64,000 bases of DNA, taken from contig JALDZX010000017.1 in assembly GCA_022813865.1 (NCBI GenBank), positions 1-64,000 on the forward strand, read 5' to 3'. Positions within the stretch are counted from its first letter, which is position 1. Each line of letters starts with the position of its first letter. The notes below the pieces were generated by a model. It saw nothing but the letters and a program-made list of their open reading frames with translations. It was not told where the DNA came from and did no database searches. This document shows positions 57,492 to 61,346 of the stretch, piece after piece. The stretch comes from Xylographa opegraphella (lineage: Eukaryota). Both the position numbers and the translations under genes were made by a program.

Positions 57492-58994
57492 TCAAAACCT
57501 CGCCTCCACCTTCCTCTGCGTCTCCCCCAACGCCCACTCACTCCTATGCTTCCGACTCCTGACCTGATTGACCTGCGCTCGCGTGAACCCCCTCGCCTCC
57601 ACCGCCGGGTTATAACCCACCCCGCTAACCTGCTCTACTGCCTTGCTGCTCACTTCCTCATTCTCCATCCCATCCGCCCTCTTATACACCGTACACACCA
57701 CCGCACCCCCCAAGCCCAGATTATGCTGCAGCGCTGCACTCGACCCTTTCACGAGCCGGTTGTTCGCCCAGCCTCGGAGCTGCCACACCAGTTCCGCACA
57801 CTGGGCCACACCCGTCGCGCCCAGGGGGTGTCCCTTTGAGATGAGTCCCCCGGACGGGTTTATCACGCACCGCCCTCCGTACGTGATGTCCCCGGCCCTG
57901 ACCATCTCATGCGCCTTTCCCGGCTCGCACAGCCCCAGCGCGTCAATGGTCACCATCTCGTTCGCCGAGAAGCAATCGTGTAGCTCACACACACGCACGA
58001 CATTCGCGCCAATGCCCGCTTCCGCCAGCGCGGCTTTCCCGGCCCGCTGGCTCATTCCATATCCTACTAGATTGATGGCGCTGCGATCGAAGAGCGACGG
58101 CGTGTCTGTGACCATGCATTGCCCGGCTATCAGCACAGCTTGTCCTTTTAGATGCGGTCGCGCATCGAGGAAAGCCTGGGAAACGACAATAGCAGCCGCA
58201 CCGCCGTCGGAGGTAGGACAGCACTGCGTCTTCGTAAGTGGCGGGTGGACCATTGGTGCAGCGAGGATGTCCTCGAGGGAGTAGACGTCGCGGAACTGGG
58301 AGTAAGGATTCGCCGCCGAATGGGCATGATTGACACGCGCGATCTCTGCAAAGTCCTCCGCCGTAGCACCGTATCTACACAAAACGTCAATTCTGTATTC
58401 GCCCGTTCCTCCAACCCCCTGAAGCCAGAAACCAGGGGCGCACTCACTTCTCCATGTACTCCCTACCCGCGTTCCCAAACATTTGCGCCGCACCCGGTGC
58501 ATTTGACAGGCCCCGCGTCTCTAACATCATTCGCCCCGTAGTACCCGTCGGATCCTCCCGATCCGGCCAATGGCTGCCCAGGCTACCGCGCTCCATCTTC
58601 TCGAAGCCGACGACGAGCACGCACTGCGCGCTGCCGCCTTGTATCATCGTGCGCGCAATATGCAGGCCTGTCGAGCCGGTCGAGCAATTGTTGTTTACAT
58701 TGTAGATTGGGATGCCAGTCATGCCGAACTGGTAGAAGACACGCTGGCCGCACGTGGAGTCGCCGTAGCAGTAACAGGCGACGCCGAGGTCGACGTCGTC
58801 ATAGTTGAGGTGCGCATCGAGGAGGGCTTTGATGCCGGCTTGTGGGATGCGACGTTAGTATGGAGGGTTCAGGCGTTGGAATGATGGGACTTATCGAAGC
58901 CGAGTTCAGTATACTCGACTTTCCCGCGTGGCTTGAGGAATTTGGTGAGCCCGACCCCGAGGATGTAGGCCGGGGATTTGGAGGGGTTCGTCAT
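57492..58994 (-). CDS. SCP2/SCPx-type thiolase (nonspecific lipid-transfer protein family), 3 exons, C-terminal ARF (PTS1-like)
   Basis: Motifs YILGVGLTKFLKPRG, ACYCYGDSTCGQRVFYQ.GMTGIPIYNVNNNCSTGSTGL, QCCPTSDGG, ELHDCFSANE, SKGHPLGATG and LQHNLGLGG. Confidence 0.96.
58842..58894 (-). other. Non-canonical AT-AC intron (53 nt) with U2-type signals
   Basis: Sense strand GGC TTC G|ataagt...tactaac gtcgcatcccac|AA GCC GGC ATC AAA restores ELGFEAGIKALLDA. Confidence 0.8.
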
Positions 58995-59748
58995 TGTGGA
59001 GATCCGGTGAAAGAAGTCTTATGAAGCCCTCATGTCTGGATATTATTCACATAGGACGCAAGATGTTGTGAACCCTGAGGAAACATTCGAGGACAGGGCA
59101 GATTGCGGGGAGATGCCGAGGCTTAGGGTATGGGGGCGTTTAGGGTAAGCTTCGGTAAAACATATGACCTAGCCGGCCGGCTGTCAGGGGAAAATGATCT
59201 TTTGTCCTCGACACCAGATGAATCAAAGCTTACTGTACATTGCACATATCGGATCAAGTCCTCACTGACGATACAGGCATCGCAGGTAGTCTTTGGTAGT
59301 TAGAGAATTATTGTGTGGGCTTTGACAAAAGTTAGAGCGTAGATGAACTGTCAGAAATTGAAACATTTTCCTTTTAGGCAAGCACAGGCTCCAAGAAGAG
59401 GAGAGGTTACCTTGTCCATTCATACTTGCCATATTTTCTCTTTTCCAAGTCTCTAAACAGATTTCAAGATCACATCTACATTATTGACCACACCTTACCT
59501 TAGGCTTAATTTGTCCAAGAGTTAAAGTAAACATGAAACAATTATTAGTGAGCCATACTAGCCCAGATTAGTCCCAGAGCTAATCAAAACCTGACGACCT
59601 GTAACGAGTCAAGGTGATTACTAACAGTTACTAACCATGACCTAAGTCTCTACGACTTCCTCGCTGTATCTCCAGGTTTGATGTCCAGAATGAACAGTCT
59701 TGCCTCATCTATGGACGCAAAAATATCTGTACCCATAAGAAACCGATA

Positions 59749-61346
59749 ATGCAATCCGAGGAGACCGTGCTGTACAGCAAATCTTTCTTTGCCAAAGAGC
59801 TCGCCACAAGTCGCAAGCTCCTGCTCTACTCGCTCCTCGTGCCACTGCTGTACGAAACGCTCACGATATGGGGAACCGCGAGCTTGTACTATGGATCAAC
59901 CACATCAACCAACCTGAAGAGGCTCACGGTCTATGCCGTAGATTTGGATGGTGCATTCCTCGGCCAGCAGATGATAGGAGCGATCAAGGCCTCGTTGAAC
60001 TCGACTCCCAACCCATTAGGGTGGCAATTCGATGACTCGGTGAACTCCGATACAATGTCAAGAGCGCTTGTGACAGACGAGCAAGCTTGGGCGGTCATTC
60101 AAGGCAGGCGTGCTTCGATTCTTGGGGTTCAATGTTGACCCACAGCATTAGTGAACATGAATGCCTCTTTGAGATTGAACTCAGCTCTGCGCTCCGGAAG
60201 TACGACGTACAGTCCTCTGTCTGCAGTAACTATCTATTTTGCTTCGGCACGCAACCAGATAGCAATGGGCTCGCTGGTCTTGCCTGCCGTACTCGGAATC
60301 GTAAATCCGCTTTTGGCCGATTTCGGCGCCATGCATACGGGCACTTTTCTCGAAGATCGCGCTGGAAATGCAACAGCAGTCGAAATTGCCGTACAATGTC
60401 CGGTCTGTCTCGCATCACCTTTCGCAGCGCAACAGATAGACCTCCATCCGTTCGACGTCCCAACAGCCTCTGGTTCTGTTACAGTCGGCTTGATCTTTGT
60501 GAGTGAAGAAGATGATAACAGGCACTATACAAACGTTCCTGATGATGAAGTTTCAAGCTTTTGACATTCACCTTTTCCATATTCCAGATCCTCCGCGCCA
60601 ATGCAGAACTCATCGGAGCCGACCTGAACTTGACTTCGACTCTTCTTTTTCGTTTTGTGTCCTCAATAATGGCATACCTGCTCCTCTCGCTAAGTTATAC
60701 ACTTATCAACATCGCCTTCGGGGTTCCACTGTACAGAATTTTCGTTCGCACTGGCTTTGTGGTATATTGGATGCTGAATGCTTGCACTATGGGTGCTTGT
60801 AAGTATTTACACGAGCCTGTAGGACTATGCACAATCGAGCTGATTGCGGTAGTGGGCTTCCCCATGGAATCTCTGTTCACACTCATCGGTCTCCGTTGGG
60901 CAGGCTATTTCTTCAGCTTCTGTAAAGTTCACTTCCTCAGGAATCGTTCAACTGCGATCCTGTTTTTGTTCGACATAACCAGCCCTTAAAGCTGCTAACC
61001 CACGTTCTGGATTGAACAGGGGTCATAATCAACGTATCTTCTGCATTCGCGGCTTTCGAGAGCATGCCTACATTCTATGAATACGGATATGGCCTTCCAT
61101 TCTTCAACAATGTGAGCATTCTCATTTCGTCCACTATATCTTGTTTTCCAACTATCAAAACAGGCAACTAATATGCCGCGGTAGATACAAGGAGCAAGGT
61201 CAATAATCTTTGGAACAAAGAATCATCTGAGTCGAAATTTCGGCATCTTAATCGCGTGGATGATACTCGGTCTTATCGGTATAGTTGTGTTTACAGCGTT
61301 GGGAATGCGAGAGAATCAGAAAAGACACACCCATATTATACGGTGA
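59749..61346 (+). CDS. SNG1/DUF3533-like multi-pass membrane protein, 6 exons
   Basis: Motifs VYAVDLDG, EQAWAVI, YFASARN, TVGLIFL, GFVVYWMLN, WVIINVSS, FYEYGYGLPF and RSIIFGTKNHLSRNFGILIAW. Confidence 0.85.

Follow-up and report, generated by a model that had tools for sequence, protein, structure and literature searches.

The 53-nt segment at 58894..58842 on the minus strand of the window (the whole stretch of 64,000 nt of Xylographa opegraphella DNA that was analysed) is, judging from its sequence, most probably a genuine AT-AC intron that the major (U2-dependent) spliceosome excises from the primary transcript; it lies in an SCP2-type thiolase gene that is intact and probably present in a single copy. 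This segment, intron 1 of the gene, begins with a 5′ splice site ATAAGT (58894..58889), that is, the U2-type consensus with an A at position +1, and ends with the 3′ splice site CCCAC (58846..58842), all features of the gene being located on the minus strand. Between them lies a perfect branch-site motif, TACTAAC (58860..58854), in which, by consensus, the predicted branch nucleotide is the A at 58855; from there the last base of the intron is 13 nt away. CCCAC ends 12 nt past TACTAAC, and its AC (58843..58842) is the first AC or AG dinucleotide to follow the branch motif. The intron is in phase 1 within a Glu codon (G|AA), and excision of the 53 nt restores the sequence ELGF-E-AGIK, with TTCG joined to AAGCC at the predicted junction. 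Upon retention of the intron, the reading frame reaches a TGA (58871..58869) after a read-through peptide of 41 residues. An earlier note on this DNA had described exon 1, the ATAAGT, TACTAAC and CCCAC motifs with their 12-nt spacing, and a TGA in the unspliced frame; each of these sequence statements was found to be correct on the minus strand. In length the intron resembles other short intron candidates that a motif scan of the window, itself unvalidated, had returned, and no unusual RNA structure was predicted within it (minimum free energy of -9.1 kcal/mol, z-score of -0.15).

All GT, GC and AT donors around the site were combined with all AG and AC acceptors, and the pairings that were in frame and free of stop codons were enumerated. 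Among the 63 pairings obtained, the conserved junction of the orthologues, ELGF-E-AGIK, was given only by AT at 58894 and AC at 58842, which agrees with the earlier claim that removing these 53 nt restores the protein. Only two of the 63 were GT-AG pairings (58955 or 58919 to 58744), and both would remove conserved core sequence. The string ATAAGT..CTAAC..YAC was observed once in the window versus 0.15 times expected, and at least one match was found in 13 of 100 shuffled sequences. The motif string taken by itself is not beyond chance, whereas it is far beyond chance that the string should fall exactly at the insertion point that the homologues indicate (described below). No further AT-AC candidate was found within the 64-kb window, in which ATAAGT..CTRAC..YAC matched solely intron 1 and ATGAGT..CTRAC..YAC had no match. 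A loose ORF-aware scan with all 16 terminal pairs did not discriminate, giving 21 matches for GT-AG and 3-22 for the control pairs. The first base of the intron and the first base of exon 2 are both A, and a one-base shift (TA..CA, 58893..58841) yields an identical mRNA; the product cannot separate the two registers. It is therefore conceivable that the same mRNA arises from borders located one base further on, or that the 53 nt are removed by a non-spliceosomal route, and we regard the chance of this as slight. Only the AT-AC register sets TAAGT at +2 to +6 for pairing with U1 and U6, and TA-CA is not a recognised terminal pair.

Exon 1 of the host gene (58994..58895) starts with an ATG at 58994 and consists of 33 codons ending in TELGF, followed by the G that is the first base of the Glu codon; it aligns with the N-termini of the orthologues. 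Exon 2 (58841..58448; 394 nt) starts with AA GCC GGC and encodes the N-terminal thiolase core, including the NVNNNC active-site region. It is separated by intron 2 (58447..58375; 73 nt, phase 2), a canonical intron of the form GTGAGT..TTGAC..TAG whose junction MEK-YGA agrees with the orthologues in the protein alignment, from exon 3 (58374..57492), which encodes the C-terminal thiolase half, ends in -ARF and carries the TGA stop at 57494..57492. The CDS has 458 codons, the same length as most full-length orthologues. Pfam matches were obtained to Thiolase_N in exon 2 (E-value of 7.5e-07) and to Thiolase_C_1 in exon 3 (E-value of 1.3e-30), and the closest solved structures are type-1 SCP2-thiolases, PDB 6hrv (E-value of 9.4e-80) and 6hsj (E-value of ~1e-79). 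On the basis of both thiolase domains and the similarity to solved SCP2-thiolases, the predicted product can be classed as a type 1 SCP2-type thiolase; its orthologues are annotated as propanoyl-CoA C-acyltransferase or as sterol carrier protein 2. The nearest named relatives are Xylographa carneopallida and X. pallens (91% over exon 3), followed by Lambiella insularis (82%). The C-terminal -ARF (57492..57500, minus strand) is common to the thiolase and to all 16 full-length orthologues that were aligned, and this conserved tripeptide may be a variant peroxisomal targeting signal. The neighbouring ORFs are ordinary fungal ones (glutamate dehydrogenase, ubiquitin hydrolase, short-chain dehydrogenase, hydrolase, G-patch protein and transporters). 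The divergent neighbour on the plus strand (59641..61000) is a multi-exon membrane-protein gene with a DUF3533 match and at least one canonical intron candidate (60499..60587), and the spacer between it and the thiolase gene (59000..59700) is presumably a shared promoter region.

The insertion point was defined by homologues. When metagenome contigs were scanned with exon 2, 80 orthologous loci of 75-84% protein identity were obtained, 75 of which are intronless at this position, the coding parts of exon 1 and exon 2 being exactly one codon (Glu) apart. One contig each from runs X2 and X3, which represent two other organisms, is likewise intronless at the same point, as its match to the window ends at 58841 and resumes at 58895 onward. 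Because the homologues are intronless at precisely the site of intron 1, the boundaries of the intron are fixed to the base, save for the TA..CA slide. Judged against these sequences, the 53 nt are an insertion relative to most relatives. Glu is encoded in all 80 loci (GAA in 40 and GAG in 36, counting locus L004, which has an intron of its own 9 nt upstream). Furthermore, 120 homologue proteins were listed, 73 of which cover the junction, and 70 of these 73 have the Glu and read ..E-A-G... This bears on the use of a rival acceptor, the AAG at 58841..58839, located in frame 3 nt downstream of the AC. Splicing from AT to this AG would remove 56 nt, and the resulting protein, whether predominant or a substantial isoform from tandem acceptors, would lack the Glu (..ELGF-AGIK..). 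This pairing keeps the frame without introducing a stop, and AG is the normal acceptor, only 3 nt past the AC. Nevertheless, the conservation of the Glu in loci and proteins argues against it, as does the order of the two acceptors, the AC being the nearer to the branch site. Moreover, an intron with A at +1 stalls at the second step of splicing when its last base is a G. AT-AG splicing is therefore considered unlikely, and the AT-AC intron is the preferred reading.

A second intron position was noticed in exon 1 of eight of the loci (L019, L023, L024, L028, L031, L051, L055 and L063), in which ~51-60 extra nt lie between the codons for ..KPRGK and VDY... The extra stretch is located at ~1420-1480 in each locus, upstream of the match start, and is in frame and stop-free in L019, L024 and L028. 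Protein P0043 (475 residues) has the same extra 17 residues, which look as though an intron had gone unrecognised and been translated in the annotation. In addition, the protein of Pycnora praestabilis (P0087) carries an 18-residue insertion exactly at the position of intron 2, after ..EYME (columns 188-205 of alignment A1), which is probably a mis-called splice site in the annotation.

The three exceptions among the 73 proteins are a truncated model (P0067) and two Xylographa proteins (P0005 and P0006), the latter two being the only full-length models among the 120 listed that are wrong at the junction. P0005, from Xylographa carneopallida, reads ..GFD-TSP.., and since Asp is encoded by GAY this implies an A at +1. 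In P0006 the intron region is translated in another frame, and the model reaches exon 2 with ..LLQ-AGIK; as the Gln codon is CAR, the base at -1 would be a C, provided that P0006 has the same splice site. The AT-AC state thus appears to be common to other Xylographa species, as deduced from annotated protein models rather than from DNA. The earlier note had predicted that standard gene finders would fail on this intron, and both annotated Xylographa orthologues are indeed mis-modelled at exactly this junction. The AT-AC intron would account for the wrong N-terminal regions of these orthologues, and would illustrate how fungal annotation pipelines limited to GT/GC-AG introns damage otherwise conserved genes. 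A search of short proteins with the exon 1 read-through peptide (P0124), for relatives with the same interruption, gave no candidates.

An independently built Logan contig of the run X1 reads, with a word depth of 160.8, spans 58300..59100 (801 bases) and shows neither a difference nor a gap relative to the window. Run X1 may, however, be the source sample of the window, in which case the agreement tests the assembler and not the sample. Single-base errors do happen, and with X1 possibly being the same sample it could be supposed that a sequence or assembly error conceals an intron that is truly GT-AG. For the intron to be GT-AG and the Glu to be kept, however, two separate errors would have to be present, one at +1 and one at -1. 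Together with the absence of differences in the X1 contig and the Xylographa protein models, which imply the same A at +1 and C at -1, this makes such an error highly improbable. Among the 98,362 contigs of X1, one matches the stretch at 80% or more, and no close paralogue of the thiolase is visible in that set, which indicates that the gene is probably single-copy.

The intron could also be a relic. That is, a former GT-AG intron may have lost both terminal Gs and no longer be removed, leaving a dead or crippled gene that gives only the 41-residue peptide. The TGA reached upon retention fits such a scenario, but the ORF is otherwise intact over 458 codons, and no acceleration of rate is seen relative to Lambiella or Hypocenomyce. 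In exon 2, the identity to Lambiella is 85.5% for the window and 85.5% for both Xylographa proteins, and in exon 3 it is 82.3% for the window versus 80.2% and 81.2% for the Xylographa proteins. The identity to Hypocenomyce is ~78% alike for the window, both Xylographa proteins and Lambiella, while exon 2 of the window is 92-93% identical to the Xylographa proteins. Exon 1 has been kept as well: it is identical to P0005 at 29 of 33 residues and, as read off the alignment, at all 26 of residues 8-33, whereas the read-through intron residues have already diverged (DKSH in the window versus DTSP in P0005). Exon 1 would serve no purpose in a gene whose intron always stayed in place. Furthermore, the anomaly is seemingly common to three species that all retain the gene, and there is no close second copy among the X1 contigs. 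By these comparisons the gene appears intact, with no sign of relaxed constraint and a rate no faster than that of its relatives, and its being dead or crippled is about as improbable as the use of the AAG acceptor.

The AT-AC intron thus has the sequence attributes of the U2-type class: AT and AC lie at the exon borders, the donor is ATAAGT, the strong consensus of U2-type AT-AC introns being /ATAAGT according to the available part of PMC5029451, and the branch site is an ordinary TACTAAC, with no TCCTTAAC in the 53 nt. AT-AC termini are found in U12-type introns too, and removal by the minor spliceosome might be considered all the more as 12 nt separate the branch motif from the 3′ end, which is a typical distance in U12 introns as well. 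The U12 donor is /RTATCCTT, however, and ATAAGTCC differs from it at +4 to +8; likewise ATAAGT departs at +4 to +8 from the consensus ATATCCTT, which is absent, as is the U12 branch-site sequence TCCTTRAY. An Rfam scan gave 0 matches, the search being of the 64-kb window only. In addition, Larue and Roy report no convincing minor introns or minor-spliceosome snRNAs for Ascomycota in the available portion of their article (PMC10639083). Removal of the thiolase intron by the minor spliceosome is therefore as improbable as a sequence error.

The proposal of the earlier note, a natural AT-AC intron with U2-type and not U12-type signals, is thus upheld as regards the boundaries, the /ATAAGT consensus and the intact gene; that the intron is spliced is what we infer from these sequence features. 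Established splicing biology suggests how removal would proceed. U1 and later U6 would pair with positions +2 to +6 (TAAGT) despite the A at +1, the TACTAAC motif, itself perfect, would pair with U2, and the first step of catalysis could follow. The second step would then use the first AC past the branch site, with the A(+1)/C(-1) pair replacing the normal G-G contact between the first and last intron bases. The product, in which TTCG is joined to AAGCC, would have the Glu codon restored and encode the 458-residue protein. In yeast and in human U2-type introns, a change of the first base from G to A is rescued by a change of the last base from G to C, the A/C pair being less efficient than G/G, as stated in the accessible text of PMC1557818. 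The earlier suggestion that the intron acts as a rate-limiting control on the enzyme found no support.

As to the origin of the intron, no relative with a GT-AG intron at the exact site of intron 1 was found, so that an origin by double substitution is hypothetical. Four of the loci (L027, L030, L032 and L057) do have a GT-AG intron, in phase 0 just past the Glu codon, that is, 2 nt downstream of the AT-AC site. L027, L030 and L032 are identical over the stretch compared (1434-1500), while the intron region of L057 is at 1420-1500; the four loci resemble lichen fungi, their nearest named proteins being from Heterodermia and Flavoplaca, which are not close to the window. It may be that this phase-0 intron and intron 1 go back to one ancestral intron whose borders have moved, or that the two arose independently. 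More boldly, the AT-AC intron might descend from the GT-AG intron of phase 0 after the Glu (L027, L057) through a shift of its boundaries by 2 nt, an idea for which the support is positional; local alignment of intron 1 with the nearby GT-AG introns of L027, L057 and L004 was not significant (shuffle p-values of 0.17, 0.14 and 0.36, respectively).

The chances are roughly even, in our estimation, that all of the Xylographa clade has the AT-AC state and that this conserved, apparently single-copy thiolase can be expressed by no other route. If so, the thiolase intron would be a natural and constitutive counterpart, as old as the genus, of the yeast A(+1)/C(-1) suppressor, in an organism that has the major spliceosome only. 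It would then offer a natural system for studying how the A/C pair arises, as each single-substitution intermediate should block splicing, and whether slow splicing limits expression. It would also be a clean natural ascomycete example of the compensation between first and last intron bases known from yeast genetics, one that is required for a conserved enzyme and has apparently persisted through speciation. No new mechanism is involved, since the class, the ATAAGT consensus and the compensatory logic are already in print, and the evolutionary interest is modest, provided that genus-wide conservation is confirmed.

AT-AC introns of the U2 type have been catalogued elsewhere. Sheth et al. (2006) list 24 type II AT-AC introns in five species, e.g. 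those of human SCN4A, SCN5A and TAF2, in the part of their article at hand (PMC1557818), and in the same text such introns are hypothesised for xylanase genes of filamentous fungi. AT-AC introns are rare in fungal annotations according to the portion of Frey and Pucker that was available (PMC7072748). A search of the literature on AT-AC introns in filamentous fungi gave nothing on point among the articles listed, and for the xylanase genes only Sheth et al. (2006) was relevant.

Like the introns of SCN4A, SCN5A and TAF2, the thiolase intron combines AT and AC termini with an otherwise major-spliceosome donor and an ordinary branch site. It differs from these known U2-type AT-AC introns, whose type tends to be kept between orthologues as far as the available text describes them, in that its host is a lichen-forming ascomycete, in its very short length of 53 nt and in its yeast-like perfect TACTAAC. 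With the engineered double mutants of yeast and human introns (Parker and Siliciano 1993, as cited in the accessible parts of PMC1557818 and PMC5029451) it shares the substitution pair on an otherwise consensus U2-type intron, and these mutants provide the rationale for a rescue at step two; unlike them, the thiolase intron is natural, apparently fixed and shared within the genus. The xylanase AT-AC II introns, compared here by the description in the available text, likewise occur in filamentous ascomycetes and have AT-AC termini and presumed removal by the major spliceosome, but belong to a different gene family. The nested AT-AC intron of S. cerevisiae RPL30 (Gould et al. 2016; available part of PMC5029451) is also an endogenous AT-AC junction in an ascomycete without a minor spliceosome. 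That junction, however, is described there as a side product of 1-2%, with a donor unlike ATAAGT, and as dispensable for the protein, whereas the AT-AC junction of the thiolase gene would be the only way to the conserved protein. With U12-type AT-AC introns, finally, the thiolase intron has the terminal dinucleotides alone in common, the donor and branch consensus being absent and the lineage reportedly lacking the machinery.
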